A DNA stretch of 58,302 nucleotides from a virus (lineage: Duplodnaviria; Caudoviricetes): IMG/VR virus record IMGVR_UViG_3300024999_000119, positions 1 through 58,302 of that record, one strand, 5' to 3'. Made by a program: the position numbers and the translations under genes. The notes under the pieces were generated by a model that searched no databases, had not been told where the DNA came from, and was given only the letters and a program-made list of their open reading frames with translations. The first letter of the stretch is position 1; each line of letters begins with the position of its first letter. This document shows positions 1-58,141 of this stretch, one piece after another.

Positions 1-175
1 AATCTAATTTCTCTAAGAAATCTTGGAATTGTTTTTCTGTATAATTAACTTTGAGTAATATAGTTTTCTTATTGATATAGTTACCATCTGTATAGTAACT
101 AATATATGCACATTTGATTGTGCTTTTAATTCTTTTATCATTTACAAATAAAAGGAATTCTTCTTTTGCATTCAT
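1..175 (-). CDS. 5' part of a conserved phage hypothetical protein (MNAKEEFL...KCAYI...FLEKLD), cut by the window start
   Basis: AGGAG RBS upstream; ATG at 175; open to position 1 (translated by hand). Confidence 0.75.
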   Translation of the reverse strand, partial: MNAKEEFLLFVNDKRIKSTIKCAYISYYTDGNYINKKTILLKVNYTEKQFQDFLEKLD

Positions 176-196
176 TTCTTTCTCCTTAAAATAAAA

Positions 197-224
197 AGAG
201 CCAATATTCTCATATTGACTCTCT
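197..224 (-). terminator. Probable intrinsic terminator/hairpin
   Basis: Minus strand agagtcaata..tattggctct followed by T tract, downstream of 228..644. Confidence 0.45.
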
Positions 225-227
225 ATG

Positions 228-644
228 TTAAATTGTAATTCTAATTGTTTCATTTGTTGGGATGTTATCTTTAGCAAAGTTATCTAAAGCTATGAATTCT
301 TCAACTAACTTTATAATATTTTGTATCTCTGCCATTGCATTACTTTTTACTTTAGAAGATATTTCTTCTGGGTTGATTGTTAATACTGCAATTTTGTTAT
401 CTTCATAATATTTCTCTTCAGAATAATCTTTGTTTTCATCACTTCGAACCCAAATCTTTTCATTTCTAGAAACTAGAAATGCTAATAATTCATCATTAGG
501 CTCTTTAAACCAAAATATAACAGTAGCATAAAACATTGGTATATATTGGTTACTGTTATCATATACCCATTTATAGGTATATTCTATTTTAGCATTCAAT
601 ATCACATTAAACTTTTCTGCTGTTTCCTTTATCTTCTTTCCCAT
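228..644 (-). CDS. Hypothetical protein
   Basis: ORF track 228..668; GGAG RBS favours ATG at 644 (MGKK). Confidence 0.7.
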   Translation of the reverse strand: MGKKIKETAEKFNVILNAKIEYTYKWVYDNSNQYIPMFYATVIFWFKEPNDELLAFLVSRNEKIWVRSDENKDYSEEKYYEDNKIAVLTINPEEISSKVKSNAMAEIQNIIKLVEEFIALDNFAKDNIPTNETIRITI

Positions 645-645
645 T

Positions 646-831
646 TCATTTCTCCATTTTAAATCCAAAGTGTTCTAACTCTAATTCTGCTTCTTTAGCT
701 AAAAGAGTTCTATAACTATTATTTGGATTAGATTGATTGAATGTTATTATTCTATTCTCTATAGAATTTAAATCTTTCTTTATTCTATTAAGATTGAATT
801 TAATCTTATTAATTCTATTCTTATTTTTCAT
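646..831 (-). CDS. Hypothetical coiled-coil protein
   Basis: 61-aa ORF, collinear with neighbours. Confidence 0.55.
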   Translation of the reverse strand: MKNKNRINKIKFNLNRIKKDLNSIENRIITFNQSNPNNSYRTLLAKEAELELEHFGFKMEK

Positions 832-874
832 TTTTTTAACCTTTATGATTAGATTAAGTGAGGATAAAATAAAA

Positions 875-909
875 AAGCTATATCGTAATTTTATTCACAA
901 TATAGCTTT
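875..909 (-). terminator. Intrinsic terminator after 934..1332
   Basis: aaagctatat...atatagcttt inverted repeat with T tract on the minus strand. Confidence 0.6.
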
Positions 910-933
910 CATTATTTATTATTTAGGAATCTT

Positions 934-1332
934 TTATTTCATTAGACTCAATAAACTATCTAATGTACTAGCATCAATAGCATTATCTACATCAACTCTT
1001 TCACTTATTTTCACTAAATTGATATAGCTTTTCATTTCACTACCATCTGCATTAAACTTTCCAGAATTATTCTTTCCACTAATAACTTGATAACCTTTTG
1101 CTGTTACATAATCACCAGTTCCAGTAAGATCCTTTGTCAATATTTCAATAGCATCTGTTAATTCATGCACATTACTGGCAAGTCTATATCTTGGTTGACT
1201 CAATTGCACAACCTCTCCAGTTTCTTTATTAACATATTCTGACTGAAATTTTAACTTTCTATTTCCTTTTTCTGCTTCTGTTATCATTGCTGATAAAATA
1301 CTCTCAACTTTTGTTTTTAATTCTTGATTCAT
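934..1332 (-). CDS. Hypothetical early protein, paralogue of 2479..2865
   Basis: AGGAG RBS; shares QPRY, YQVI, KFNxDGSEMKSxINLxKISERV with 2479..2865. Confidence 0.85.
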   Translation of the reverse strand: MNQELKTKVESILSAMITEAEKGNRKLKFQSEYVNKETGEVVQLSQPRYRLASNVHELTDAIEILTKDLTGTGDYVTAKGYQVISGKNNSGKFNADGSEMKSYINLVKISERVDVDNAIDASTLDSLLSLMK

Positions 1333-1381
1333 GACTATTTCTCCTATAGATATTATATAAAATTATTTAAGATGCTTGAAT

Positions 1382-1466
1382 CCCAAACACCAAAAAAGGA
1401 CATACCCAAACCAAAAGGAAAAGAAATACCTGAAAGAGGACAACACCAAAAGACAAGAGAAAAAGA
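1382..1466 (-). promoter_or_regulatory. A-depleted leader with TGGGTATGT core, copy 1 (candidate phage-RNAP promoter)
   Basis: 1387-1409 matches 2913-2935 at 21/23; only 3 A in 85 nt of the sense strand. Confidence 0.55.
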
Positions 1467-1776
1467 TAAGTCTGTGTTGTATTGTTTATAATGTCAACTA
1501 ATTTTGATGTGTATGAATAGGTATATGTGTGTGTATGGATAGATGAGAAAGATGAGCTAAATGAGAATATTCGATGTAAAATATCAAATACAATGTATCA
1601 AATACTATATATAGGGAAGAGATAAAAGAGATGTTCTCAGAACCTTAAAGGAAGGGTAAAAAAGATTAGAATATGAGCTAAAAATAAATCTTTTTTTAGG
1701 GTAAAATTAAATTAACTGCACTCTAGGAGAAAGTTATTTTGTAAATACTGCTAATTATGGATAGTTATATCTTAAC

Positions 1777-1805
1777 TTGACTATGTTTATAGTTATTCTT
1801 ATATT
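1777..1805 (+). promoter_or_regulatory. Sigma70-type promoter
   Basis: TTGACT-17 nt-TATATT upstream of RBS and ATG 1857. Confidence 0.65.
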
Positions 1806-1856
1806 ACTGTATAAAAATTGAAATTAAATGTAAACAACTATAAAAGGAGTAAAGTT

Positions 1857-2195
1857 ATGTTAGAATATGCAGGGAAGAAAGGAATGCTAATATATCCAGA
1901 GAATTTATTGAATATTATTGGAGCTAATTTAGATAGTAAGATTACAGCTTTAATGATAATCTTATTGAATTGCGATTCAGATGGTAAAGTTAAAACTAGT
2001 AAAATAAATAGAATTATAAGTGAAACTTTGAGTGTCGATATTGATTATGTATCTAGAATAATTATGACTTTGAATAAAGAAGGTTATTTAGAAAGATTAG
2101 GAAGAGGAAGTTACATAGTTAATCCTTATCTATTTTCTAATAGGAAAAAGAGTATGGAGAACAGATATAACTTTAATGAATTGTTTGAAGAATGA
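1857..2195 (+). CDS. RepL-like winged-helix protein
   Basis: GRGSYIVNPYLF motif after a helix-turn-helix; AAGGAG RBS before ATG 1857. Confidence 0.6.
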   Translation: MLEYAGKKGMLIYPENLLNIIGANLDSKITALMIILLNCDSDGKVKTSKINRIISETLSVDIDYVSRIIMTLNKEGYLERLGRGSYIVNPYLFSNRKKSMENRYNFNELFEE

Positions 2196-2240
2196 TTAGA
2201 TTGAATAGAGTCATATCTAGATGATTAGAGTGGATAGAGT
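2192..2240. repeat. 20-bp direct repeat pair
   Basis: atgattagattgaatagagt (2192-2211) vs atgattagagtggatagagt (2221-2240), 18/20. Confidence 0.7.
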
Positions 2241-2267
2241 TTGTACAATATATAACTGTAATAAATA

Positions 2268-2294
2268 AAAAAAGAGAATATTTCTATTCTCTTT
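2268..2294. terminator. Bidirectional terminator between convergent genes
   Basis: aaagagaata-tttc-tattctcttt hairpin. Confidence 0.7.
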
Positions 2295-2298
2295 AATA

Positions 2299-2421
2299 TT
2301 ATTCTATAGTACAATCACATCCCTTATTAGCATATTTCTTTGCCAATGTTAATGCAGTCCATTCTGATATACCTATCATTCTCATAATAAGCATACCTTT
2401 AAAGTATATTTTAATACTCAT
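2299..2421 (-). CDS. Small hypothetical protein (40 aa)
   Basis: MSIKIYFKG...CDCTIE with AAGGA RBS; below ORF-track cutoff. Confidence 0.5.
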   Translation of the reverse strand: MSIKIYFKGMLIMRMIGISEWTALTLAKKYANKGCDCTIE

Positions 2422-2451
2422 TTTAGTATTCCTTAGTTTGATTAAATGAAT

Positions 2452-2473
2452 ATGCTCCCAATTAAGGGAGCAT
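2452..2473 (-). terminator. Hairpin after 2479..2865
   Basis: atgctccc-aattaa-gggagcat. Confidence 0.5.
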
Positions 2474-2478
2474 TATAA

Positions 2479-2865
2479 TTATTGCATTAGTTTAGCTAAT
2501 TCATCTAAATCAGTATCACTAACAACAGAATCTGCATTAACTCTTTCGCTAATCTTTATTAGATTAATAAAAGACTTCATTTCAGACCCATCTTCATTAA
2601 ATTTAGCTGAATTGTTTACTGCTTTAATTACTTGGTAATCACCAGCAGTAATGTATATATTAGTACCAGATAATGAATCTGTTAACATACTAATAGCATC
2701 AACCAATATAGCTTGTCTAGTAGCTAAGCCATATCTTGGTTGATTTAAGATTACTTCTTTGCCATTATCATCTATATAAGATAATTGTGGCTTTAATGAT
2801 TTAATCTTTGTTGCTTCAGCTATCATCGCTACTAACAATGACTCAACTTTTTCTTTAAGTTCCAT
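2479..2865 (-). CDS. Hypothetical early protein, paralogue of 934..1332
   Basis: AGGAG RBS; full-length similarity to 934..1332. Confidence 0.85.
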   Translation of the reverse strand: MELKEKVESLLVAMIAEATKIKSLKPQLSYIDDNGKEVILNQPRYGLATRQAILVDAISMLTDSLSGTNIYITAGDYQVIKAVNNSAKFNEDGSEMKSFINLIKISERVNADSVVSDTDLDELAKLMQ

Positions 2866-2912
2866 ATCGAAACTCTCCTATAATAATAAATAATAATGTG
2901 TATGCCTTTCAT

Positions 2913-2975
2913 ACACTAAAAAAGAACATACCCAATTAGATATAAACTACATAATTAAAAGAGGACACCATAAAA
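2913..2975 (-). promoter_or_regulatory. TGGGTATGT leader, copy 2
   Basis: ACATACCCA at 2926-2934 and AAAGAGGACA at 2958-2967 (+), near-identical spacing to copy 1. Confidence 0.55.
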
Positions 2976-3032
2976 GAAGAGGGGGGATAGGGAAGATGAT
3001 GATGATGAGGATATGGAGAACTACTTCCTCAT

Positions 3033-3085
3033 ATTTTGACAATTTTTTTGAAACTATTCTATCTCCTTACATTTTGACAATTTTC
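3033..3085. repeat. 15-bp perfect direct repeat ATTTTGACAATTTTT
   Basis: 3033-3047 and 3071-3085. Confidence 0.8.
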
Positions 3086-3149
3086 TATAAACATTTGCCT
3101 TAAATCATAAAATTTTTTTATAAATTTTTTACAAATATTTAGGGATATA

Positions 3150-3229
3150 CTTCGGTTTTGCCTTCGGGTTTCTTGTTTCTTTTTGGTGTCTTTGCTCTCC
3201 GGTATGGGTATGTTTTTTCTTGCTGTTTT
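3150..3229 (+). promoter_or_regulatory. A-depleted TGGGTATGT leader, copy 3
   Basis: 2 A in 80 nt; TTTGGTGTC at 3182-3190 and TGGGTATGT at 3205-3213; precedes the rightward early arm. Confidence 0.5.
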
Positions 3230-3257
3230 AAATGAATAATAATTAATATGGAGATCT

Positions 3258-3686
3258 ATGAGAGAAATTATTTTTAAGTATCGGAACAAAAAGGAGGGGA
3301 ATGTTAAAGCAAATGAGGAAATGGTATTAAAGAAGTTCGGTTATATATTTAATGGTTCTTTGAAAGAGATATTATTAGTGTTATATGTTAATAGTAAAGG
3401 AGAGATATTTGAATATGAGACTATTGCTACTGGAGGGAGTGGTGAATTAAGTGTATATGTTAGTGATATATTTAGAGGAGCTATATTTAATGGTGCTGAT
3501 GGTATTATATTGGTACATAATCATCCTGCAGGATATTTAGAATTTAGTGAAACTGATTTAAGATTTATGAAATTGTTAATAGAACAGTCTAGTTTATTAG
3601 GTATTACTATAATAGATTCTATGGTAATAGCAGATAATAAGATTATTAGTATAACAGATAGTGCTAAAAAGAAAAAGGAAGAGTAA
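3258..3686 (+). CDS. radC: RadC-like JAB/MPN domain protein
   Basis: N-terminal Glu, ILVHNHPAG, SETD, IIDSMVI. Confidence 0.85.
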   Translation: MREIIFKYRNKKEGNVKANEEMVLKKFGYIFNGSLKEILLVLYVNSKGEIFEYETIATGGSGELSVYVSDIFRGAIFNGADGIILVHNHPAGYLEFSETDLRFMKLLIEQSSLLGITIIDSMVIADNKIISITDSAKKKKEE

Positions 3687-3687
3687 A

Positions 3688-3948
3688 ATGAGTGATTCTG
3701 GATATTATCCAATAGGAGCAGAGAATGATGAACATGCTCCATATAATAAAGAAGATAAAGTGGCAATAAAATGCCCACATTGTTCAAACGATGATTTAGA
3801 AACAATACAAATTAGATGTAGAGTTGAATTGAAAGGTAAATCAGTCAAATTATGGGTTATATTATATAGCTATTTAGATGTTATTGGAGAAGATGAACTT
3901 TATGATGCTGATGAACTGTATTGTTCTAAATGTAATAATTTCTTTTAA
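3688..3948 (+). CDS. Zinc-ribbon hypothetical protein
   Basis: YPIGAENDEHAPYN, CPHC and CSKC. Confidence 0.7.
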   Translation: MSDSGYYPIGAENDEHAPYNKEDKVAIKCPHCSNDDLETIQIRCRVELKGKSVKLWVILYSYLDVIGEDELYDADELYCSKCNNFF

Positions 3949-3958
3949 GGAGAATAGA

Positions 3959-4279
3959 ATGGAAAACTTAACAGATAGAATTAGAATTAAGAAAGAGGAA
4001 ATTGAAGCTAAACAAAAAGAACTTGATAGCTTCCAACCTGATAATATTGATTATGAAGACCAATTTGATGAAATGCTGAATTACTCTTATCCTAAATTAT
4101 TTGGTATGCTACCTTCTCGTATTTTATATGATTGTGATCGTCAAAAATATTATAAGGATCTCAATAATTTTGTTTATTCAATGGATATTAGAGAACATAA
4201 AATGTATATACAACTTGAGAAAGAGTTGGATGATTTAGAAAACGAACTATTTCAATTAGAACTTGAAGGGTTAGGATAA
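3959..4279 (+). CDS. Acidic coiled-coil hypothetical protein
   Basis: AGGAG RBS before ATG 3959. Confidence 0.7.
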   Translation: MENLTDRIRIKKEEIEAKQKELDSFQPDNIDYEDQFDEMLNYSYPKLFGMLPSRILYDCDRQKYYKDLNNFVYSMDIREHKMYIQLEKELDDLENELFQLELEGLG

Positions 4280-4280
4280 T

Positions 4281-4466
4281 ATGGAAGATATAAAATGTCC
4301 TTATTGTGGGAATAGCAGATTATCAAATATGGAAGCTAAGTTATGGGTCAATTTAGGGACATATTCTGCTGATGTTGAAAATTATTTAGATGAAGAAGAA
4401 GAAATATTTTGTATGGAATGTGGTCAAATATTCAAATTAAGAGAAGGAAAACAAAATGAAAATTAA
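4281..4466 (+). CDS. Small zinc-ribbon protein
   Basis: CPYC and CMEC. Confidence 0.7.
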   Translation: MEDIKCPYCGNSRLSNMEAKLWVNLGTYSADVENYLDEEEEIFCMECGQIFKLREGKQNEN

Positions 4467-4977
4467 AAAGATTCATAACCTAAAAGCATATAAGAATATA
4501 GATAAGAACCAAATGCTATTAAAAAGATATAATTATATGCATAAACATGATGAAAATACTGTAGAGATAACTAATGGATTTATAATAGCAAGAATACCAG
4601 CTATTGATGTAGAAGATGAGTTCTATTCACCTAAGGTTAATCATATTGATGTTAGTGATAAAAATGTTATGATATATCCTAAAGTAGATGTAGAAGCTAA
4701 AGAAGTTATGTACCCAAAAACAGATATTGTATTTAAAGATGCTGAAAAAGAACAATTCTTTAGTGTTGGAATAAATGCTAAATATCTATATGAATTAGCT
4801 AATATTTTAGGAGACAATCAAGTTATCTTAACTTTCAATAATGCTGATAATCATATTATTGATGTTAAACCAAAAAGTAATAATGGAGCTTATGGATTAT
4901 TAATGCAATTTAAAATACAAGATCCATTAAATAAATATAAAGAATTGTTAATGGAGAAAAAGGATGGAAAAGTTTAA
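4456..4977 (+). CDS. Protein resembling partial DNA polymerase III beta-clamp domains
   Basis: ITNGFII, YPKTD, VGINAKYLYELA, terminal GLLM pattern. Confidence 0.5.
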   Translation: MKIKKIHNLKAYKNIDKNQMLLKRYNYMHKHDENTVEITNGFIIARIPAIDVEDEFYSPKVNHIDVSDKNVMIYPKVDVEAKEVMYPKTDIVFKDAEKEQFFSVGINAKYLYELANILGDNQVILTFNNADNHIIDVKPKSNNGAYGLLMQFKIQDPLNKYKELLMEKKDGKV

Positions 4978-5161
4978 AGTAACATTCTTAGAAGAAACAT
5001 TAACACTAAAAAGCGTTATTATTAATGCTGATGATCCAAGAGTAGCTGCGAAAATAGTTAAAGATGGTGTCAGAGAACTGACAAGAGAAGAATTAGAAAC
5101 AATGAAAAGTGAACATTTAGTTTATGTTGGTAGAATTATTAAAAGTATAGAAGGAGAATAA
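4964..5161 (+). CDS. Hypothetical protein
   Basis: ORF with RBS, overlapping neighbour. Confidence 0.65.
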   Translation: MEKFKVTFLEETLTLKSVIINADDPRVAAKIVKDGVRELTREELETMKSEHLVYVGRIIKSIEGE

Positions 5162-5162
5162 A

Positions 5163-5909
5163 ATGAATAATGTAGTAGTAGAGAATTTAGTAAATTCTAA
5201 AATTTATGTAAGAAATAATATTAGTTATATGCAACCTAGTAGTATTATAAATCCATTCTTAGATATTCTAGGTTATGGTAAAGAATTTGGTGGTGAAGTA
5301 TTTATTCAAACACAAAATGAAGTAGTTAATCAAAATATTGGTGGAGATGAGAATATTGCATATCCAAGATTCTTGGTTGAGTTAAGAAAAAGTGAAGTTC
5401 TATTTGGAGATGTTCAATATCAAAATACTTTTGGATTATTAGTTGCAATGGATCAACAAAATCCTTTAGTTAAAGTATATACCGGAATGAATGTAAGTGC
5501 ATGTACTAATCTTTGTATATTCAATGCAGAGCATGTATTCCAACAGAATCTAATGGAATCTTTAGATAATACTTTTAATGCTGTTAAAATGTATGCCAAT
5601 AATGAACAGCAAAAAATTGATGATTATAGAAAAACTCATGAAAGATTAGTTAATACTGTAATGAATCAAGAACAATTAAATGAGAGATTAGGCTATCTTC
5701 TAAGAATGGCTAATACTACTAAATTAGGTACTAGTCCAATAGTAGGTGCTGCTAAGTTATTAAGTGATAGAAAATCTGTTTATTTTACTGATAAAGAATC
5801 AACTCTTTATAACCTTTATAATGCTGTTACTCAAGGGATTACAGATAGTGCTGATTTGTTTTATAAGACAGATAAAACATTAGGATTGACTAGATTATTG
5901 CTAAATTAA
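5163..5909 (+). CDS. DUF932/DUF3871-like protein
   Basis: ACTNLCIF and C-terminal TLYNLYNAVT. Confidence 0.6.
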   Translation: MNNVVVENLVNSKIYVRNNISYMQPSSIINPFLDILGYGKEFGGEVFIQTQNEVVNQNIGGDENIAYPRFLVELRKSEVLFGDVQYQNTFGLLVAMDQQNPLVKVYTGMNVSACTNLCIFNAEHVFQQNLMESLDNTFNAVKMYANNEQQKIDDYRKTHERLVNTVMNQEQLNERLGYLLRMANTTKLGTSPIVGAAKLLSDRKSVYFTDKESTLYNLYNAVTQGITDSADLFYKTDKTLGLTRLLLN

Positions 5910-5921
5910 AAGGAGAATAAT

Positions 5922-6155
5922 GTGAAATATAGATTAAGAGTAACAAAAAGAAAGAGTGGCAAATATCTATATGAAGTTTTAGATAATGAAGATAATATCA
6001 TAAGCAAAAGAGAAAGTGAACGTAAATATGTAGCTTGTACGATTGATGGTATAGAGTATTTTGGAAGACTTGATCTAATTGCTAAAAGTAAACATGCATT
6101 AAAAACACCAATAGCTTTTGTTAGAGTAGGAGAATGGAATGAAATTGAAGACTAA
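5922..6155 (+). CDS. Hypothetical protein
   Basis: GTG start with AGGAG RBS. Confidence 0.65.
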   Translation: MKYRLRVTKRKSGKYLYEVLDNEDNIISKRESERKYVACTIDGIEYFGRLDLIAKSKHALKTPIAFVRVGEWNEIED

Positions 6156-12791: not shown

Positions 12792-13061
12792 ATGGCACTA
12801 AAAATAACAATAAATGTATTTGATGAAACAGTAAACAATTACACTAATGTTCCTATGGGAGCATATAGTGAAGAAACAAGAAAAGCTAATGTAAGAGCAA
12901 ATAACAAAAGAAAAGAAGAAAATGAAGCTAAAAGATTTCACTATCCAACAGATGGTGATTTCTTTATTCCAAATAAATCATCTTCATATAGAAATGGTGC
13001 ATTTTGGATGACACAAGATTTGAAACCTAATGGAATTTATCCATTAAATAATGAGATGTAA
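12792..13061 (+). CDS. Hypothetical protein
   Basis: AGGAG RBS. Confidence 0.6.
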   Translation: MALKITINVFDETVNNYTNVPMGAYSEETRKANVRANNKRKEENEAKRFHYPTDGDFFIPNKSSSYRNGAFWMTQDLKPNGIYPLNNEM

Positions 13062-14544: not shown

Positions 14545-14963
14545 GCATAACTGATAGAAAACAAATATCCTTTTTAAGTATGATAGCTGGATTTGCTCAA
14601 TTAAGTTATTTTGGAGCTTTATCTGACGAGATAGTTAACATTGCAAGTAAAGGAATAGATACTTACGCTGAATTAACAGTAATGAGCAAAAATGATTTCA
14701 AAAGGATTAAAAAGTTCTTCCAATATGCTGAATCCGAAATAACAAAGTTGCATTACAATACAAGTAATATTATGATGCTAAGTATTGTTTTAGCTATCTG
14801 TTCGGACTTTTTAGATGTTGTTCAAAACAAAACAAAACAAAAGGTTTGGCAAGAATTAGAAACAACTTGCAGAACAAATTTAAGCAAGAATTACAGCAAC
14901 TTTACTGATGAAATAGACAAAGCAGTTAGAGTTGTGGAATTATTAAATAATTGGAGTGAATGA
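14541..14963 (+). CDS. Hypothetical protein
   Basis: RBS; ATGA overlaps. Confidence 0.65.
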   Translation: MSITDRKQISFLSMIAGFAQLSYFGALSDEIVNIASKGIDTYAELTVMSKNDFKRIKKFFQYAESEITKLHYNTSNIMMLSIVLAICSDFLDVVQNKTKQKVWQELETTCRTNLSKNYSNFTDEIDKAVRVVELLNNWSE

Positions 14964-15280
14964 TGGAATTAGAAAAATTAGAAAAATTAGTGGCTATTAG
15001 AGATAAAGCCGAAGCAAAGAAGAATAAGATTGACAACTTATTACAAAAATATAAAAAGTTACAGCAGATAATTTTAGATATAAAGTATTTAATGGGAAAC
15101 GCTGGTGAAATGATATTTACAGGCAGAACTGGAAGGCTATCCGAACCAGAGTTTTTACTAATGGTAAGAATAAATGATGTTGGTGGGTGTGTAGCAATAC
15201 CAGAGTTAATGTTACAATTAGCAGATAAGCGATTGAAAGAACTTGAGGGTGAATTAAATGGTGAGTTACAAAGCAAATAA
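14960..15280 (+). CDS. Hypothetical coiled-coil protein
   Basis: RBS; overlap. Confidence 0.65.
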   Translation: MMELEKLEKLVAIRDKAEAKKNKIDNLLQKYKKLQQIILDIKYLMGNAGEMIFTGRTGRLSEPEFLLMVRINDVGGCVAIPELMLQLADKRLKELEGELNGELQSK

Positions 15281-15285: not shown

Positions 15286-16098
15286 GTGAGTGAAATGGAG
15301 AGGAAAGAATTTTTTAAGGCTTTTATTCGAGTTGTAAAATCTATTGCTATTCACAGCGATTATTACGGATTTGACACAGTAGAAGTTATTAGAGAGCCGC
15401 TAATTGAAGCAAAAGATAAAAATGAGGTAAAACAGATATTATTAAAAAAATATCCTCAATTTTTCCAAAATGGGAAGGTTTATGAAAAAGAGACCAAAGA
15501 CCAAGCACAATTTTTTTATGTTGTTATTTTCCCTTTATATCAACACGAAATCGAACTTATAAAAGAAGGCGAATGGAAATGTGATTATTGCGGACATGTC
15601 CACGAAAACAAATATTTATCAAGACCGTTAGCAAGTAGAAAGTTTGTTGGTAAAATATTTTGTGGTAGTGATTACAAAACTGGAAATAATATTGTTTCCG
15701 CACCTGACTGTTATGAACGATGGAAAAAAGAAGTTGCTTTTAAAGATGTTGATTTGCCTGATGATTTGAATTACATAAATGTTGATAGTTTAAATTATAT
15801 ATACAAAATAACTGAAAAATCTACAGATAAAAGCTATATTGGTAAAACGAGAAATGCACCATTTTTTAGGTGGTGGAATCATCTAACTCATTCCAGTAGT
15901 CCTTTTGGAATATATTTAAGACAAACAAAATTAAGTGATTGGACTTTTGAAGTATTAAAAGAGCTTCCAGCAGATATTGCAAATAGCGAAGTATTTAAAA
16001 TTGAATCAGAATACATACAAAAGTTTGATAGTATTAATAATGGCTTTAATTCTTTGATCAGCTATAAAGCTGTTTATGAAATTGTAACTATTGATTAA
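15286..16098 (+). CDS. Zn-finger plus C-terminal GIY-YIG nuclease
   Basis: CDYC..FC..C; YIYKITEKSTDKSYIGKT, RWWNH, IESEYI, GFN. Confidence 0.75.
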   Translation: MSEMERKEFFKAFIRVVKSIAIHSDYYGFDTVEVIREPLIEAKDKNEVKQILLKKYPQFFQNGKVYEKETKDQAQFFYVVIFPLYQHEIELIKEGEWKCDYCGHVHENKYLSRPLASRKFVGKIFCGSDYKTGNNIVSAPDCYERWKKEVAFKDVDLPDDLNYINVDSLNYIYKITEKSTDKSYIGKTRNAPFFRWWNHLTHSSSPFGIYLRQTKLSDWTFEVLKELPADIANSEVFKIESEYIQKFDSINNGFNSLISYKAVYEIVTID

Positions 16099-18984: not shown

Positions 18985-19075
18985 TTTTAGTTTTAAGGTA
19001 TCTACAATTAATTATTATTTAAAAGACATATAAACTTATAGGTTAAGTATTAAAGTGTCTTAGAAACGATTATAA
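18985..19075. repeat. Dispersed element, copy C
   Basis: tattaaagtgtcttagaa (19048-19065) identical to 57157-57174; core catataaacttat is the reverse complement of the copy-B core. Confidence 0.7.
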
Positions 19076-19257: not shown

Positions 19258-19274
19258 CTCCTCCTATAGATAAG

Positions 19275-19310
19275 AAAGAGATGATAGCTTAGGCTGTTGT
19301 CTCTTTTTTT
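19275..19310 (+). terminator. Intrinsic terminator ending the early/middle arm
   Basis: aagagatgatagc-ttag-gctgttgtctctt plus T tract. Confidence 0.8.
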
Positions 19311-19449
19311 ATTTGGAAGTTATAGTTTTTGTATGATAATTGGGATAATAATTAAATAAGGAATCAATAATAAAATTTTATATTAAATGTTTAGAATATA
19401 GCTTATATTCACAATAAACAAAGCAAAAAGTCTTAAATTTTAGAATACC

Positions 19450-19482
19450 TATAGCTATATAGCTATATATGCCGGCATATAT
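19450..19482. repeat. Two overlapping perfect 18-bp palindromes
   Basis: tatagctatatagctata (19450-19467) and atatatgccggcatatat (19465-19482). Confidence 0.8.
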
Positions 19483-19528
19483 GATATACCATACATAAGT
19501 GTTCTAAATATTTTTCTATATAATTTAT

Positions 19529-19557
19529 TTGTATTATTAAATACTATATAGTATATT
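19529..19557 (+). promoter_or_regulatory. Sigma70-type promoter
   Basis: TTGTAT-17 nt-TATATT. Confidence 0.55.
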
Positions 19558-19588
19558 TACATATACAAAATTACTATATGGAGAAATA

Positions 19589-20047
19589 ATGGATAATTTA
19601 AGCATAATCAATACTTCTAGTGGAGAAATTATAGGAAGCTATACACCCAAATTTAGCATGTCGCATATGGAGTTTGTTTTATTTTTTGGTAAAAATTTAG
19701 CTATGCTTGGGAAAGCAAATCCTTCAAAGAAAGAAATTATTCTTGCTAGCATAATTTCAAAAATGGATGGCGATAATGTTGTTTATATTCTTAAAAATTT
19801 TAGAATGGAATTATCGAAAAAACTGGAGATAAATCCTTCTTATGTTGGTCGTGTAGTTGATGAATTAATAGAAAAACAAATTTTATATAAGATAGGGAGA
19901 GGAGTCTATATTGTTAATCCTTATATTTATGGGAAAGGTAATGTCAAAAATATTGCTAAATTGAGATGGGAATTTGAAGCTATATTTAAAAATGATACTG
20001 TCGAAATGACTCATTCTGTAAAACGAACATATAAAGAAAAAGTATAA
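19589..20047 (+). CDS. RepL-like winged-helix protein
   Basis: IGRGVYIVNPYIYGKG after a helix-turn-helix. Confidence 0.7.
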   Translation: MDNLSIINTSSGEIIGSYTPKFSMSHMEFVLFFGKNLAMLGKANPSKKEIILASIISKMDGDNVVYILKNFRMELSKKLEINPSYVGRVVDELIEKQILYKIGRGVYIVNPYIYGKGNVKNIAKLRWEFEAIFKNDTVEMTHSVKRTYKEKV

Positions 20048-25713: not shown

Positions 25714-26220
25714 ATGGCTGATTTAATAGGCAAAGTAAAAAGATATATGAGTGAAGTGAATACTTCAGTAGAAGATTCAATTCTCTCTTATCAAGAAGGT
25801 TTAGCAGCAAGTAAAATAAATACTGCATATACCTTTATTCCTTGTGCAATCGAAGATCCAACAAATGTTGTTGTAACTCCAGTTGTATTAGGAACAGTTT
25901 CTGCAAATGCAGTTGCATTTCCACAAGTAGCAGAAGTAACATCTTTGACAGCTCTAAGTGCAGTTGCTGATTTAGATGCTCATGCAGCTTCTGTAGCTTA
26001 TAATGTTGGCACAGTAGTTAAAGCTACTCCAACTGGTGGTTCATTAGGTGCTTATGTATGCTCAACAGCACATACAAGTACAGCAGGACCAGATTTCGAT
26101 ACTGATATTGCTAATTGGAATTTACTTCCACATACAGCATTCTTGAAGATTGTTCATACTGCTGCTGGTTCAGCAAAAGTAGCTAATTTCCGATACAAAA
26201 TCGAAGGTTATAAAGATTAA
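25714..26220 (+). CDS. Probable capsid decoration protein with CBM5/12-like insert
   Basis: AYNVGTVVK..YVCSTAHTS..P...NW. Confidence 0.55.
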   Translation: MADLIGKVKRYMSEVNTSVEDSILSYQEGLAASKINTAYTFIPCAIEDPTNVVVTPVVLGTVSANAVAFPQVAEVTSLTALSAVADLDAHAASVAYNVGTVVKATPTGGSLGAYVCSTAHTSTAGPDFDTDIANWNLLPHTAFLKIVHTAAGSAKVANFRYKIEGYKD

Positions 26221-26224
26221 TTTA

Positions 26225-26255
26225 TTTAGGGGAGATTATTCTCCCTTAAATTTTA
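26225..26255 (+). terminator. Intrinsic terminator
   Basis: tttaggggaga-ttat-tctcccttaaa plus T tract. Confidence 0.65.
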
Positions 26256-26271
26256 TAGGAGATATAATAAA

Positions 26272-26997
26272 ATGATTGCAGTTAAAGATTTAGATATATC
26301 TTTATCATTAAAACTTGGGGATCCAGTTAGTGGGAATGATGATGGTGAACAATTCAAACAAGAAGGTAGATTAGGTTATCTAATTAGAGGATATGCAAGA
26401 TTAGTTAGAATGCTTTATAAACTTATGCGAAACAATGCCCCACTATTTGCAAAACAAAAAAAATATCATACTCAAATAATTACATCAAGTGTATTTGATT
26501 TAATTATAGATGATGCTATCGTAGTTATAGATACTGTAGATGAGTTATTTGTTAAAGTAGAAAAGAAAGGTTCACTTGTTTATAAAGGTTTAGCTACATA
26601 TATACAACCAGATGGATATATAGCAGTCAGAGAAGGAATCAATGACCATTACATACCTACAATTAATGGCAATGATAGTTCTATCTTTTATACAAAATTA
26701 GATAATAAGATTTATTTATTACCAGTATTAAATAATGTTGAAACTGAAAATCATTATACAGAAATATCTACTGTATTTAAATCTGATGCAGAAAATTTTA
26801 CAATTAATGATAGTCTTGCTATTCCAAATGAATATGTAGATTTGCTTATTTCTTTAGCAGCATCTGAAGGTATGCAAGATATTGCAAGAACTGATAAGGT
26901 CAATCTTTATGCTGGTGATGTAGCTAACCAAATGAGTATTCTCAAGAATTATTCTGATACAATAGAAGCAAAAAGAGGAAGTGACTTAAATGGATAA
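26272..26997 (+). CDS. Head-tail adaptor/ring protein 1
   Basis: Position; AIPNEYVDLLISLAA motif. Confidence 0.6.
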   Translation: MIAVKDLDISLSLKLGDPVSGNDDGEQFKQEGRLGYLIRGYARLVRMLYKLMRNNAPLFAKQKKYHTQIITSSVFDLIIDDAIVVIDTVDELFVKVEKKGSLVYKGLATYIQPDGYIAVREGINDHYIPTINGNDSSIFYTKLDNKIYLLPVLNNVETENHYTEISTVFKSDAENFTINDSLAIPNEYVDLLISLAASEGMQDIARTDKVNLYAGDVANQMSILKNYSDTIEAKRGSDLNG

Positions 26998-27640
26998 GAG
27001 AATAATATCTGAAGTTGCTTTAAGATGTAATGACACTAAATTTACTGATTTTCAAAGTAGTGTTTATGAAAGAGCTTTATTAAGAGCTTCAAGGTCTGTA
27101 GCTAAAAGATACCATCTAATTCAAAGAGAGTCTAATTTTAATATTGATATTCCTATAGGAGAAAATGGAGACGAAGATTCTGTAGTAGAAGAAAAGTCTT
27201 TAATTGATGTTGTTATTAGCTTGCCATCTTTTACATCGGAGTATAAAGTTATTATAAATAATTTAGAATATACTAAAGTAAAAGATATTACAGACGATTA
27301 TCAATATACTCTTTATCGAGATCAGAACAGAATTTATTTTAATTATCAACCAAGAACTAAAAGTGATAGTGTTCATATTAGATATACATCAGATATAAAT
27401 GAAGAAGATTATGATATTGAAGAATTAGAACCTATTATTCCTTCACAATATGAAGAAGAATTAATAAAACTAACGTTAGTTGAAATAGCTAAGTTAGGTA
27501 TAGTTAAATTTAATGAATCTTCTGAAGGTGGTAAATATACAAATGTTCTTAAATTGTATTCTATTGATGAAAGAATATTAGAAAAAGATTTAATTAAAGA
27601 TACAACTTGGGCTGTTATAAGACCAAGATGGAGTGTATAA
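26990..27640 (+). CDS. Head-tail adaptor/ring protein 2
   Basis: IIPSQYEEELIKLTL motif. Confidence 0.6.
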   Translation: MDKRIISEVALRCNDTKFTDFQSSVYERALLRASRSVAKRYHLIQRESNFNIDIPIGENGDEDSVVEEKSLIDVVISLPSFTSEYKVIINNLEYTKVKDITDDYQYTLYRDQNRIYFNYQPRTKSDSVHIRYTSDINEEDYDIEELEPIIPSQYEEELIKLTLVEIAKLGIVKFNESSEGGKYTNVLKLYSIDERILEKDLIKDTTWAVIRPRWSV

Positions 27641-28398
27641 TGGAAGCATCATTAATAAATAATCTATTATCTAAACATCCATATTATTCTAAGTTATCTG
27701 ATTCTGATAGACTAATAGTATTGAATTTAGCTCTATCTAATTATTGGAATGCCTTAGATGAAGTTATATACCCTTCTGTATTAACTGCTGGTAAAGTAGG
27801 TACAAGTGGTGCTATTATAGAATACCCTTCTATTTATAGAATGCCACAAAGATTTTCAGCATCTTTAAGTTTATCTACATATTCCAATATATTGAATCAA
27901 TTAAGCTCTAATGAATATGTAGGTCAATTAGATGATGATAGTAAGAAGATTGTTTTTTCTATTGCTGTTCAAAAGTTAGCTCAAAAGATTCCAAGTTATT
28001 ATTCTGTTGAAAATCATACTGGTGATATTGAATATGATACCGAGAAGTTGATTTCTCCTTTAGAAGTATTATGGTTTAAGTTGCCAATGATTAACCATTA
28101 TGCACCAAGTATTTCTTTATCTTCAACTATTGTGTATGCTTTTAGTAAATTTGTTGATACTATTGCTAACATCACATCTTCAATTGCTTATGTAATAACT
28201 GAAAATTTAGCGTATAATGCGGAAGGAAGCCTACAATCTTCTATCCTATACAATATGCCTATCTTCACTACAAATAGCTCTTACGCAGCTCCTAATAGCG
28301 AAATAAGGTACTTGGTGAGAACATCAGCAGATGAACCAACGGAAATTATAGAAACTTCTATAGCATTAGCAAAAACAACAATAATTTATAGTTTATAG
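27640..28398 (+). CDS. Virion structural protein
   Basis: TAATG overlap; structural module. Confidence 0.55.
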   Translation: MEASLINNLLSKHPYYSKLSDSDRLIVLNLALSNYWNALDEVIYPSVLTAGKVGTSGAIIEYPSIYRMPQRFSASLSLSTYSNILNQLSSNEYVGQLDDDSKKIVFSIAVQKLAQKIPSYYSVENHTGDIEYDTEKLISPLEVLWFKLPMINHYAPSISLSSTIVYAFSKFVDTIANITSSIAYVITENLAYNAEGSLQSSILYNMPIFTTNSSYAAPNSEIRYLVRTSADEPTEIIETSIALAKTTIIYSL

Positions 28399-28422
28399 TT
28401 ATAAAAATTAAAGGAGTCAGAA

Positions 28423-29841
28423 ATGAACCATGCACCAACAATTAAAGTATCACATGAGATTCTAAAGAAAAATAAGGAAATTATTTCTGAATCTTCTGGA
28501 TATAAAGCAGAAATAGAATTAAAAATATCAGATAAAGATGGGAAAATAAAGCAAACAATTACAACTCCATTTAGAAGTTACGTTAGTAATTTCCCTAAGA
28601 TTTTACAATATAGTTTATTGGGAGTAGCTTCTCAACCTATGAATACTGCGAATACATTATTCACAGCTTCTCTTGCCCATACTTTTGTAGTAACCGAAAA
28701 AGATTTAACTGGACTTGCATCTACTCCTTCAAAAAGAGGTATTTGGATAGGTGATATAAATGATACTTCTGGAGTTGGAAATTCTCAAACATCTGGAATA
28801 CAAGATGAATTAAGTTTTAGTGATTTTAATCTTAGAAGACCTTATGAGCAAGGAGACTTGTCTGCAACAAAGGAAATAGATTTTGAAGCTACAACTGTTA
28901 ATATGTATTCAACTAATTCCGATATTCTAGAAGTAAAAAGAAGATTCACTAATGTTGGTCCAGGAAGCATCTATATTGATGAAGTTGGTTTAGTTGGCTC
29001 TGCACCTAGCTCTTCTACTGCGACTACTGCTGGAGCTTTTGTAACGAATACAGTATATCGAATAGCAAGTGCTGGCACTACCAATTTCACACTTATTGGT
29101 GCTACTGATAGCTTACCAGGCACTATTTTTATGGCTACTGGCGCTGGAACTGGAACTGGAACTGCAATTCCATTTGATTCTGTTATGATTGCGAGAGATG
29201 GAGTTTATGATAGTTCTGGTAACGGAGTAGAAGTACCTGAATCCAATATTATCGATTTAACTTATAGATTTGAAATAACTAACTCTTCTGGATTTACTAG
29301 AAACTTCCTTAGGTATCTTGCTGGTGAAATGAGTGGTTCTGCTCCTAGTGTATATTTAAAAGATACTCTTGGTACATCATATAGCTACAATTATAGCTTA
29401 TTAGCAGCGAACAAAAGTCTCATGGCATCTGCAACAGATGTTAATTATGGATTGCTTATTAGTGGTAGTATTACTTCTACTCCAAGTTCTGTACCAACAA
29501 TCAAAACATTGGACTACACTATTGAAAATCAAATTCTAGAAGCTTCTATGGAGCATAGTGCTGTTTCTACAATAGATTTGACTACTGAAGATGGAGCATC
29601 TACTTTTGGTGTTTATAGAGATTTTGAAAATGTTCTTACCACAAATGTTTATGTTAATGCAGTTAATTTAGTAGCACAAATAAACGATACTGTATCAACA
29701 ACAAAGAATTTCTTAATAGGAAAATCTTCTGTTTCTGGAGTTGGTACTGATTATATAACTGTTGCTCCTGGTGAAATATTAAGACTAAGATTTTATCTTT
29801 CATTTCCATTAGGTGATTTAAACCCATTAGCAGCAGAATAA
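28423..29841 (+). CDS. Tail-associated structural protein with internal duplication
   Basis: RRFTNVGPGSIYIDEVGL resembles RDFENVLTTNVYVNAVNL; Ser/Thr/Gly rich. Confidence 0.6.
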   Translation: MNHAPTIKVSHEILKKNKEIISESSGYKAEIELKISDKDGKIKQTITTPFRSYVSNFPKILQYSLLGVASQPMNTANTLFTASLAHTFVVTEKDLTGLASTPSKRGIWIGDINDTSGVGNSQTSGIQDELSFSDFNLRRPYEQGDLSATKEIDFEATTVNMYSTNSDILEVKRRFTNVGPGSIYIDEVGLVGSAPSSSTATTAGAFVTNTVYRIASAGTTNFTLIGATDSLPGTIFMATGAGTGTGTAIPFDSVMIARDGVYDSSGNGVEVPESNIIDLTYRFEITNSSGFTRNFLRYLAGEMSGSAPSVYLKDTLGTSYSYNYSLLAANKSLMASATDVNYGLLISGSITSTPSSVPTIKTLDYTIENQILEASMEHSAVSTIDLTTEDGASTFGVYRDFENVLTTNVYVNAVNLVAQINDTVSTTKNFLIGKSSVSGVGTDYITVAPGEILRLRFYLSFPLGDLNPLAAE

Positions 29842-30928: not shown

Positions 30929-32611
30929 ATGAGTACACCTTTAACAGGTCAAAGAATTGATCAAAGCTATGGAGACATAGTACAAGTTTCAAATGCTGGT
31001 TATGGTATAGATGCTACATCTAGAAAAGTATCTAGTGGTTTAGGGACAGATTCAGCATTAGCATTAGGAACAAATATTGTTACAATACAACCCAGTACAA
31101 CAAATGGTTCAGTATTAGAAGTTAAGAATTTAGCTGGTTCTGTATTATTCACAATCAATACATCTACAAATACAATAACTGCTAATAGTGGAGTTAAATT
31201 TGTTGGGGATGGTAGTTTATTAACTTCTGTACCAAGTGTTGGAAGTGGTGGTACTACATCAGAAGTAGCATTAACTTTACAGGCAGACTCAAATAATGGC
31301 GGTACTGCTGGTGAAGATATTATAATGAAAATTGGCACAAAAGTAGTTGGCAGAATACCAAACACTTATGCAGCATCATTACCAAGTGGAGTTGAAGGTA
31401 ATTACTTCTTAAAAACAGTGTCAGATAACTTTGCTCCTCCAGTCGGTGGTGCAATACTTAATGGTAGCACACAGTATTATTCACATGTAGATAATACCAA
31501 TTTGAATTTTGGTACTGGTGATTTTAGTTTGGGGGTGTATTTTAATGTGTATTCTACGTCTTCTGGATTTGGTATGATAGGTTCGTTAACTGATGGAGTT
31601 AGTTTTTATGATTTAAGACTAACATCATTAGGTATTCTATCACTTAATATATATAATTCTGGTACAAAATATACAATTAGTTGTGCATCGGCAATAGAAG
31701 CAAATAAGAATTATCATTTAGTAATAACAAGAGGTACTTCACCTAAATTATATCTAAATGGTGCAGAAATGGCTACTACATTAAATGAGATTAGTGGTAA
31801 AATCTTTACCTTTACGGGTGTTAAGCTATTTGGTGATTCCCCTCACTATGCTTCGTTTAATGGTAAATTCTATTTCTCAAACTTCTACAACTACGCTCTA
31901 ACACAAGCAGAAGTAACTGAAAGATGGAACAACGGACAACCACACTTGTATGTAGAGCCTTATGCTACGAGAGATGCGAGCAATACTGTTCTTACAAGTG
32001 GTACTTTGGTAATTGGTAAAAGATACATCCTAAAAACCTTTGTTTCTGGTGATGACTTTACAAATGTTGCAACTGTTTTAAGTGGTACAATAAATACAAC
32101 TGGTTGTGTATTCATAGCAAAAGCTACAACCCCAACAACTTGGACTAATTCAAGTGAAGTTATGAGCGAAGGCTTGACATTCTCCGCTAACTACCAAGAT
32201 GCTGGTACAAATGGTTGGAAAGTTAAAGTAGGTGGAGTTACAAGTATTATGAATAGTACTGCTTCTCCTATTGCTGCTGGTAAAGGTGCTTATGAAGTTT
32301 ATACAGATGCAAGAGCTTTGATAGCAACAGCAACTCCGACTACTATGTCAATTCCTAAAGGCTATGTAATTAGAGAAATTAGAGCTTTGGGTTCTGCTGG
32401 GTTAACTGCTATTAAAATAGGGACTTCAAGTAGTGGTGAGCAAATTGTTGCTTCAACAACTACAACTGGAACGACTCCTAAAATTCTTACTTTGGCAGCA
32501 ACAGCAAGAGATGCTTATTCAGAATCGGCAGACACTCCTATTTATGTCGAACACACAACTGCTGGTCAAACAATGAATGTAATCTTAATCTTTGAAAGGG
32601 TAGGTGCATAA
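30929..32611 (+). CDS. Tail fibre/receptor-binding protein with LamG (ConA-like) domain
   Basis: FVGDGSLLT fibre motif; NFGTGDFS, YHLVITR, LYLNG, YNYALTQAEV. Confidence 0.75.
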   Translation: MSTPLTGQRIDQSYGDIVQVSNAGYGIDATSRKVSSGLGTDSALALGTNIVTIQPSTTNGSVLEVKNLAGSVLFTINTSTNTITANSGVKFVGDGSLLTSVPSVGSGGTTSEVALTLQADSNNGGTAGEDIIMKIGTKVVGRIPNTYAASLPSGVEGNYFLKTVSDNFAPPVGGAILNGSTQYYSHVDNTNLNFGTGDFSLGVYFNVYSTSSGFGMIGSLTDGVSFYDLRLTSLGILSLNIYNSGTKYTISCASAIEANKNYHLVITRGTSPKLYLNGAEMATTLNEISGKIFTFTGVKLFGDSPHYASFNGKFYFSNFYNYALTQAEVTERWNNGQPHLYVEPYATRDASNTVLTSGTLVIGKRYILKTFVSGDDFTNVATVLSGTINTTGCVFIAKATTPTTWTNSSEVMSEGLTFSANYQDAGTNGWKVKVGGVTSIMNSTASPIAAGKGAYEVYTDARALIATATPTTMSIPKGYVIREIRALGSAGLTAIKIGTSSSGEQIVASTTTTGTTPKILTLAATARDAYSESADTPIYVEHTTAGQTMNVILIFERVGA

Positions 32612-33225: not shown

Positions 33226-33549
33226 ATGGAAAGTTGCAAAATACACGACAAACAAATTGAAATATTGGAAGAAAAAATGGAAACTGTACAAGAAGATTTG
33301 AAACACATAAGAGAAAATGTTCACACTCTTTTAGGAAGGAGTTCAGATTTTGTTGTAAAAGTTATCAATGGTAAAACAGAAGAAAGATTAGCAAGTGAGT
33401 TAATTGGCGAAATGTATGTTGAAATGAAAACTTTAAGGAAACAAACTCCTAAAAGTATAATGTCAACATTCAGTACATCAATATTACCATTTATAAACAT
33501 ATTAACTTTGATAGGTTTAATAATAACTTTGTTAGAGGTATTACAATGA
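33226..33549 (+). CDS. Coiled-coil protein with C-terminal TM (lysis accessory)
   Basis: AGGAG RBS before 33226; hydrophobic C-terminus; precedes holin. Confidence 0.6.
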   Translation: MESCKIHDKQIEILEEKMETVQEDLKHIRENVHTLLGRSSDFVVKVINGKTEERLASELIGEMYVEMKTLRKQTPKSIMSTFSTSILPFINILTLIGLIITLLEVLQ

Positions 33550-57089: not shown

Positions 57090-57206
57090 TTAAATTCTTC
57101 ATTAGATGAGTTTTAAGACACTTTCTCTTTCTACCCATAAGTTTATATGGATTTTATATTAAAGTGTCTTAGAAGTGAAGATAGATGCCTTAAATGTGAT
57201 TCTGTA
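57090..57206. repeat. Dispersed element, copy B
   Basis: taagacacttt (57114-57124) / aaagtgtctta (57161-57171) IR around ctacccataagtttatatgg. Confidence 0.75.
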
Positions 57207-57995: not shown

Positions 57996-58028
57996 GATAA
58001 ACTCCGTATTTATTTGTTCCGTAATATT

Positions 58029-58086: not shown

Positions 58087-58141
58087 GTAAATATACTAAA
58101 TACATTAACTAATTTCAATTTTATGCTTTTAGCTTACCATC

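Follow-up and report, generated by a model that had tools for sequence, protein, structure and literature searches.

The virus record IMGVR_UViG_3300024999_000119 (Duplodnaviria; Caudoviricetes), analyzed here over its whole length of 58,302 bases (the window), carries three copies of a short motif, TGGGTATGT followed by a T run, at the heads of early genes, and it encodes a giant protein of 4008 amino acids (aa) that is predicted to contain an RNA polymerase. The subject of this analysis is whether the motif copies are promoters for that polymerase. Rightward genes span positions 3258 to 57061, and a short leftward module lies at both ends of the record (57375-58302 and 1-2865). Two of the motif copies precede leftward genes (934-1332 and 2479-2865, both on the minus strand), and the third precedes the first rightward gene (3258-3686, plus strand), which encodes a RadC-like JAB domain protein (E value of 4e-24). 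The two leftward genes are paralogs encoding proteins of 132 aa, of no known family, and 128 aa, with 71 of 129 positions identical (55%). A terminator-like hairpin and T run lie past the first (873-910, minus strand) and a terminator-like hairpin lies past the second (2452-2473, minus strand); therefore, each paralog would be its own transcription unit and would need its own promoter. A homologue search with the 132-aa protein returned only the protein itself, and an Atlas search was uninformative (best score, 0.81). The candidates L004-L006 were rejected as relatives of this protein, being unrelated fibre-like open reading frames (ORFs) with one short common peptide.

A scan of the whole record finds exact TGGGTATGT only at 1400-1408(-), 2926-2934(-), and 3205-3213(+). 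With one mismatch allowed there are 16 matches against 8.96 expected, and therefore only the exact copies stand out. The bipartite pattern TGGTGT-N15-45-GGGTATGT has three matches in the whole record, and none of 100 dinucleotide shuffles gave any. A weight-matrix scan yielded no fourth copy, the next score (15.3) lying within the null maxima of 20 shuffles (10.9 to 17.0), and TGGGTATGTNNTTTTNTT, scanned across the phage collection, gave 120 single-copy chance matches, none of them related. The cores, each of 23 nucleotides (nt), are TTGGGTATGTCCTTTTTTGGTGT at 1387-1409(-) (copy 1), TTGGGTATGTTCTTTTTTAGTGT at 2913-2935(-) (copy 2), and ATGGGTATGTTTTTTCTTGCTGT at 3204-3226(+) (copy 3). They end 68, 61, and 45 nt before the ATG codons at 1332, 2865, and 3258, respectively, and the first purine past the T run lies 59, 52, and 36 nt before the same codons. 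Copies 1 and 2 agree at 23 of 26 nt (1384-1409 versus 2910-2935), and copy 3 has 4 mismatches in 23 to their consensus. A 7-bp hairpin (2898-2916) overlaps the 3' end of the core of copy 2.

Upstream of the core, copies 1 and 2 have a common 10-nt box, AAAGAGGACA on the plus strand and TGTCCTCTTT on the coding strand, with GGTGT before it. The upstream boxes are TGGTGTTGTCCTCTTT at 1433-1448(-) and TGGTGTCCTCTTT at 2958-2970(-), and the core starts 23 to 24 nt after TCCTCTTT in both, though the spacer sequence has diverged. The upstream block of copy 3 consists of TGGTGT only (3184-3189, plus strand), a weak match within a T/G-rich tract at a spacing of 21 nt, versus 36 to 40 nt in the other copies, and could be a chance match. 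A preliminary description of this DNA had pointed to the three sites with TGGTGT and a core ahead of genes, to their distance of 45 to 68 nt from the ATG, to the close likeness of copies 1 and 2 with their common 10-nt box, and to the unrelated gene behind copy 3; all of these points hold, and the motif scan that it proposed as a check places the bipartite motif at these sites alone. Two further candidate readings were rejected. The sites are not coding sequence, as copy 2 has stops in all three frames between its boxes and the frame of the motif differs between copies (small TTG-initiated ORFs overlap copies 1 and 3), nor are they terminators, a hairpin being present at copy 2 only.

It is extremely improbable that the copies have no function and represent duplication remnants together with a chance match at copy 3. 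Copies 1 and 2 do precede paralogous genes, but they keep only the two blocks and the ribosome site while the spacer between has diverged. Further, copy 3 lies on the other strand before an unrelated gene, the shuffled sequences never produced the bipartite pattern, and related phages have the same layout with other motifs.

Two of the copies lie in tracts that are nearly devoid of A on the coding strand. The tract at copy 1 (1382-1466, minus strand) has 3 A in 85 nt and spans the core and ∼60 nt upstream of it, and the tract at copy 3 (3150-3229, plus strand) has 2 A in 80 nt; these counts, given in the preliminary description, were reproduced by recounting. The mean of the record for an 80-nt segment is 31.1 A on the plus strand, the corresponding count for the minus strand being 25.7, and across the whole record only segments starting at 3136-3158(+) and 1369-1397(-) have ≤7 A on the strand read. 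Copy 2, with 13 A in 80 nt, is much less A-poor. An H-DNA reading was rejected because the tracts, although lacking A, contain G as well as T and C and hence are not homopyrimidine.

Three relatives (G001, L139, and L141) were compared with the window. Their loci were sought with an alignment designated A3, the 18-sequence alignment A2 being too diverse; a single-query search with the terminase found no relatives, and terminase and portal alignments in the viral collection gave G001 alone again. Compared to the window, the terminase and the polymerase protein of G001 are 63% and 28% identical, respectively, and those of L139 are 71% and 27% identical, the polymerase proteins of L139 and G001 being 37% identical to each other. 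L141, with a terminase that is 40% identical, is located on a contig of a metagenome-assembled genome labelled Candidatus Goldbacteria. T-rich tracts without A on the leftward strand are found in all four genomes, at 1382-1466 in the window, 33401-33480 in G001, 15166-15265 in L139 (1 A in 80), and near 11972-12050 in L141.

G001 and L139 each have a motif of their own. In G001, GATYGTTCTTTYAAKTCTAAAG is found at 33397(-), 33945(-), and 34285(+), ahead of the first rightward gene and of two leftward genes; the pattern was defined from two of these copies, and the third is an independent match with 3 mismatches, compared to 0 to 2 matches anywhere in null genomes. In L139, TTGGGTTTATTRTTTAAAAWTCTTTTT (25 of 27 nt identical) is found at 14843(-) and 15894(+), ahead of a single leftward gene and of the first rightward gene. 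In all eight copies from the three genomes, a T/C run and then a purine are found 17 to 68 nt before the start codon, leaving room for a ribosome site, and both the orientation of the core and its short distance to the start codon are kept. The motifs always face the first genes of both divergent early units. In ungapped cross-scans, the core of each genome found none of the copies of the others. The motifs are alike within a genome and differ between genomes, a pattern that points to a phage-encoded reader, whichever protein this may be, that may have coevolved with its sites. The polymerases are only 27 to 37% identical.

In the divergent region, a block of ∼95 nt shows much stronger conservation across genomes than do the TGGGTATGT-type motifs. 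It is found in three phages (2976-3092 in the window, 33990-34080 in G001 [L137:13990-14080], and 15410-15500 in L139) and consists of a run of six to seven G residues (AGGGGGGATAGG), ∼30 nt, and then GAGAAnTAnC-TCTTACATTTT-(G)ACCAAT. Its last part is tandemly repeated in the window (3021-3054 and 3059-3092; 34 nt, 79% identical) and present in three copies in G001. The block could represent iterons, an operator array, or the real rightward promoter.

These repeats bear on the possibility that the locus is a replication origin or another DNA-level element, e.g., an unwinding region beside iterons, with one motif copy carried along by gene duplication. The tandem repeats and the block conserved in G001 and L139 would fit such an element, as would the several direct-repeat sets between the L139 tract and the gene and the presence of tracts without A in all four genomes, once without a leftward gene. 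An origin would, however, not account for the orientation and short start codon distance kept in eight of eight copies; copy 1 is 1.5 kb from the repeats, and a better candidate lies elsewhere, and we regard this explanation as very unlikely. That candidate is a 330-nt, ORF-free, palindrome-rich region (19258-19588; e.g., TATATGCCGGCATATA) directly 5' of a RepL-like winged-helix gene (19589-20047; Pfam E value of 1.8e-5, above the cutoff), and the two together are a candidate replication origin with its initiator.

The three sites do not resemble host-type promoters. No TTGACA-like and TATAAT-like hexamers 16 to 18 nt apart, i.e., the sigma-70 geometry, were found on the three cores, although this consensus may not be that of the host. 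Within positions 1 to 5000, sigma-70-like matches are fewer than in shuffled sequence (29 versus 39.8 ± 6.2). The TTGACA hexamers at 3036 and 3074 sit in the tandem 34-nt repeat without a −10 partner on the plus strand and read TTTACC and TCTACC in the relatives G001 and L139. The preliminary description had also placed late genes on host-type promoters; this was not borne out, sigma-70-like matches again being below those in shuffles (63 versus 82.3 ± 9.0), although TTGACA-17-TAAATT does exist at 23179. The best sigma-70-like site of the early region (1777-1805; TTGACT-17-TATATT, 10 of 12) lies ahead of a rightward winged-helix gene (1857-2195), the sole gene of the leftward module without the motif. 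A stretch of 390 nt without ORFs (1467-1856) separates this gene from copy 1, and within it AATAGGTATA...GATAGATGAGAAAG (about 1524-1560) resembles, by eye, L139 13058-13095.

The sites might instead be operator or activator sites for a phage regulator, e.g., a winged-helix protein, or promoters for the host polymerase with a sigma factor of other specificity, with the injected polymerase starting elsewhere or nonspecifically. Winged-helix proteins are indeed encoded in or near the early module, by the gene at 1857-2195 (RepL match with an E value of 0.0076, below the cutoff) and the RepL-like gene at 19589-20047, and a MarR-like ORF is seen in the same module of G001, by eye rather than by search. 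The fixed box-to-core spacing of 23 to 24 nt in copies 1 and 2, despite their diverged spacer, suggests a protein touching both elements, and motifs private to each genome fit any phage-encoded DNA binder. The early transcripts attributed to gp66, the virion RNA polymerase of phage phi14:2, also fit this reading, as the phi14:2 study reports no motif common to them. Conversely, typical operators are palindromes or clear direct repeats, and the core has neither form; no sigma factor was found among the 43 other ORFs scanned. Further, when infection begins, the virion is the only source of phage proteins, so some promoter is still needed here, and none of the sigma-70 type fits. We consider an operator or a host-read promoter rather unlikely.

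Folding of the sites argues against one known promoter type. For the hairpin of the N4 type (stem of 5 to 7 bp and 3-nt loop), all six strands folded as single-stranded DNA gave 0 to −2.7 kcal/mol, which was no better than shuffled sequence. As RNA, the A-poor tract of copy 3 folds at −14.0 kcal/mol versus −18.8 kcal/mol in shuffles (z score of +1.84), being equaled or surpassed by 198 of 200 shuffles; copy 1 is more stable than its shuffles (z score of −2.96), and copy 2 is average. There is thus no RNA structure common to the three copies, and Rfam gave no matches at an E value of ≤1 in positions 1 to 5000 and none at the gathering score across the whole window.

The poor folding of copy 3 as RNA, and of all three copies as single-stranded DNA (0 to −2.4 kcal/mol, not better than in shuffles), would also fit transcribed 5' leaders that are U rich, A poor, and unstructured and that boost translation or transcript stability, the true promoters lying farther upstream. 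The long ORF-free region upstream (1467-1856) would accommodate such promoters, weak sigma-70-like sites (9 of 12) are found there at 1834-1806(-) and 1783-1754(-), and abundant long noncoding early transcripts are described for phi14:2. A need for an unstructured leader nevertheless leaves unexplained why a 23-nt sequence is kept within a genome and changed between genomes. In addition, copy 1 folds better than its shuffles, copy 2 is not A poor (13 of 80), the motif of G001 copy b abuts the ribosome-binding site and leaves little leader, and no Rfam family matches; we therefore consider leaders of this kind unlikely.

The candidate reader is the giant protein (41527-53553, plus strand), which is encoded in the structural module immediately before the large terminase; its gene lies between the structural genes and the large terminase in all four genomes examined. 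An AlphaFold model of aa 1600 to 2700 (46324-49626) has a predicted local distance difference test score of 76.3 and a predicted template modeling score of 0.75. This region contains DFDID, a catalytic-type motif (aa 2317 to 2321; 48475-48489), within GKDFDIDV, and the motif is identical to the catalytic motif of gp66 of phi14:2. An exhaustive search with aa 1600 to 2700 found 34 cluster representatives among 1.8 billion proteins, most of them of 3,500 to 4,760 aa. Across 18 aligned sequences, the aspartates D718, D720, and D722 show almost no variation, and the five basic residues K181, R182, K287, K305, and K335, which lie upstream of them, show none. The sequence HEGLH (aa 1304 to 1308; 45436-45450), of the zincin-like HExxH type and with the family consensus TLxHExxH, lies ∼1000 residues before the polymerase aspartates.

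Foldseek comparison of the model gave 6vr4_A (gp66) as the best match (E value of 1.5e-9), followed by QDE-1 and cellular polymerases. By VIA-align, the Z score was 17.5 for RDR2, ∼17 for QDE-1, 13.3 for the nonvirion polymerases of P74-26 and P23-45, and 10 for P23-45 gp96. The alignment to gp66 was the longest (712 residues; Z score of 13.2 and root mean square deviation of 5.1), RDR2 and QDE-1 having higher Z scores over fewer residues. On the basis of DFDID and these matches of the modeled core, the giant protein is predicted to carry a single-chain two-barrel RNA polymerase of the phage and RNA-silencing clade.

Sequence comparison alone does not reach this assignment. The giant protein matched no Pfam and no PHROG families, it had no match in the phage collection by tblastn, and as a single sequence it had no match to chains in the PDB at an E value of ≤1. 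A 6-sequence profile searched against the PDB gave four weak, unrelated chains (best E value, 0.31), gp66 not being among them. The T7-like motif B (Rx3Kx7YG) is absent from the giant protein by regular-expression search. The polymerase is thus not N4-like, nor is it demonstrably a member of the gp66 family at the sequence level. The preliminary description had proposed an injected polymerase with cognate promoters, citing N4 and phi14:2 gp66 as known virion polymerases; the polymerase itself is supported by DFDID and the modeled two-barrel core, and for the promoters we still infer the function. The position of the gene and hydrophobic C-terminal segments seen in the protein sequence suggest that the giant protein may be packaged in the virion.

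Systems in which an injected polymerase is paired with early promoters of its own are already known from N4, P23-45, and the phiKZ group. N4 has three early promoters, which are extruded hairpins. N4 resembles the system predicted here in its giant injected polymerase (about 3500 aa) and its few early promoters, but its enzyme is T7-like rather than two-barrel, and the sites in the window have no hairpin as single-stranded DNA. QDE-1 and RDR2 give the highest structural Z scores over the two-barrel core (17 to 17.5) but are eukaryotic enzymes with 9 to 13% sequence identity that act on single-stranded RNA or DNA without promoters.

Two other phage systems are also close parallels. The virion RNA polymerase gp66 of the crAss-like phage phi14:2 (PDB 6VR4) is likewise a single-chain two-barrel enzyme with DFDID and a gene in the structural module, and it is proposed to transcribe early genes once injected. 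According to the phi14:2 study, DFDxD is present in a virion protein of every crAss-like phage, with DFDID as the form in gp66, and gp66 worked in vitro only on denatured DNA. The giant protein differs in having no sequence-level match to gp66 even by profile and in its length (4008 aa versus 2180 aa), and no crAss-like match was obtained from the phage collection for the capsid protein, the terminase (among the 15 matches listed), or the whole genome. In addition, the window has a common motif at its early genes, whereas none is reported at the early transcripts of phi14:2. P23-45 has a two-barrel virion polymerase, gp96, fused to the tape measure protein and a conserved motif at 14 start sites mapped by cappable-seq, with related motifs in those relatives that have the polymerase. 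A two-barrel polymerase within a giant protein (of the virion in P23-45 and predicted to be so here) and a phage-specific motif before the first genes (AT-rich pre-early promoters in P23-45) are common to both systems. Unlike in P23-45, the carrier here is not a tape measure protein, the portal is of the P22 type, there are 3 sites rather than 14, these sites are candidates predicted from sequence, and scanning of the 43 other ORFs revealed no second, nonvirion polymerase. New here are the lineage itself and its carrier protein of 4,000 aa, together with the motif and the tracts without A.

The record is most likely a complete, circularly permuted genome of ∼58 kb cut within the leftward module, because the leftward module is in one piece in G001 and other assemblies of the same DNA bridge position 1 of the window. 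G001 (59,502 bases, with a terminal overlap) is gene-for-gene collinear with the window, and the first 6 kb of the window are also present in contigs of 58,291 and 41,300 bases, where they begin 652 and 9,704 bases in, respectively; a contig from another assembly thus extends 9.7 kb to the left of position 1, and the 58,291-base contig starts at a different point. The CheckV completeness of 53% is likely an underestimate for a novel lineage. The DNA came from groundwater metagenomes; the runs listed for positions 1 to 6000 were four DNA runs from one groundwater study, with no RNA run among them, and comparison of three groundwater DNA runs with positions 1 to 6000 gave no useful variants, joints, or ends. 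The lineage is new: it has no phage relative in GenBank, neither the whole genome (as DNA) nor the capsid protein (by tblastn) had a match in 50,697 phage records, and the terminase matches 144 phage records, all at <60% identity (23 to 26% among the 15 matches listed, none of them crAss-like).

Recognized structural genes encode a P22-type portal, an SU10-type capsid protein, a virion structural protein, and the large terminase, and those for replication and recombination encode a primase-helicase, a Sak4-like annealing protein, and a Holliday junction resolvase. Further genes encode a Dam methylase, an M15 peptidase, the RepL-like protein, and two homing endonucleases; no DNA polymerase, like no sigma factor or second RNA polymerase, was recognized among the 43 other ORFs scanned, and no tRNA genes were found. 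Strong GGAG ribosome sites (Shine-Dalgarno sites) are visible in the sequence, and their strength argues against a host among the Bacteroidota. The terminase of G001 (L137:5775-8825, corresponding to G001 25775-28825) has 1016 aa compared to 646 aa in the window and contains an insert of ∼370 aa with LAGLIDADG-like blocks that looks like an intein, whereas the window has an HNH endonuclease gene (55514-56035) after the terminase instead and a GIY-YIG endonuclease gene at 15286-16098.

A second candidate motif class, which may be read by a conserved factor, was noted outside the three sites. The 13-mer AAAGTGTCTTAGA is identical in three phages (57113-57173 and 19052-19064 in the window, 32296-32308(-) in G001, and 13035-13047(-) in L139). 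In the window, two of its copies are arranged head to head at the junction of the rightward and leftward modules (57113-57173), forming an inverted repeat of 11 bp, and a third lies 19 nt before the ATG at 19084 with the same CATATAAACTTATRGGT ahead of it.

Several lines of evidence favor the interpretation of the three sites as early promoters for the injected two-barrel polymerase of the 4008-aa protein, a reading that we prefer while placing it slightly short of an even chance. We base it on the fact that the only early phage proteins are those borne by the virion, that the early units have no host-type promoters, and that the sole transcription enzyme found is encoded in the structural module. 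P23-45, with its two-barrel polymerase fused to a giant virion protein and its conserved motif at mapped starts, offers a precedent. We propose the following. (i) The two-barrel polymerase would be packaged in the virion as part of the giant protein and injected with the DNA, where it would read the TGGGTATGT/T-run elements. (ii) These elements would start three early units, i.e., two monocistronic leftward genes and a rightward early operon. (iii) The polymerase would recognize the ∼23-nt core, with its G-rich 5' part and T run, and would start at the first purine after the T run, 36 to 59 nt before the ATG, so that a ribosome-binding site fits in the leader. (iv) The tract, poor in A and in self-complementarity, would keep the region free of structure and, more speculatively, may ease access of the enzyme to a single-stranded template, the form that gp66 requires in vitro. 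Virion packaging, the protein that reads the motif, the position of the start, and what the A-poor tract does are the parts of this scheme that we infer.

Other observations weigh against this interpretation. Exact TGGGTATGT is absent from the equivalent place in G001, L139, and L141, which carry the polymerase; the preliminary description had named the lack of the motif in polymerase-bearing relatives as evidence against its proposal, and, taken literally, this is what was found. The private motifs of G001 and L139 (T rich, 19 to 27 nt, two to three copies) were defined from their own copies, their likeness to the motif of the window (TTGGGTWT with L139 and GTTCTTT with G001) was seen by eye only and fails the cross-scan, and the sample comprises 3 + 3 + 2 sites in three genomes. 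The strongest tract without A in L139 lies ∼380 nt from the gene with direct repeats in between (at 14960-15160, three short sets: AAGTCTGTTATCT in three copies, TATAGTAGTA-type repeats, and TTAAGTACTTAT in three copies), and L141 has a similar tract but no leftward gene; therefore, tract and motif do not always go together. The packaging of the giant protein in the virion is a prediction made from gene position. In the phi14:2 study, the early transcripts of gp66 showed no common upstream motif. Finally, a host polymerase with an unusual sigma factor could be the reader, and the phage itself encodes winged-helix regulators (1857-2195, a weak match, and the RepL-like 19589-20047) that may be able to bind such sites.

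A matter of wider interest is how the injected two-barrel polymerases of crAss-like phages and of phages related to them select sites for initiation. In the uncultured lineage described here, a single polymerase domain is matched by three short candidate sites, and two relatives would serve as natural specificity variants. As a tentative extension, which we hold with distinctly less confidence than the promoter function itself, the sites could be the first defined promoter class for injected two-barrel polymerases of the gp66/QDE-1 type, consisting of a ∼23-nt core (G-rich head, T run, and purine start) within a tract of 80 to 100 nt without A. In such a promoter class, it is conceivable, if doubtful, that the tract would keep the template free of structure and of thymine and that the lone enzyme would load on melted DNA without host factors. 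On an equally guarded view, a core that coevolves with each polymerase would explain the lack of a common motif in phi14:2. If the sites are operators or leaders, the tracts without A would stay an unexplained conserved feature of the early region. If they are promoters for the injected polymerase, they would permit in vitro promoter assays for the gp66-type class of enzymes and would provide a rule for spotting early genes in metagenomic phages.

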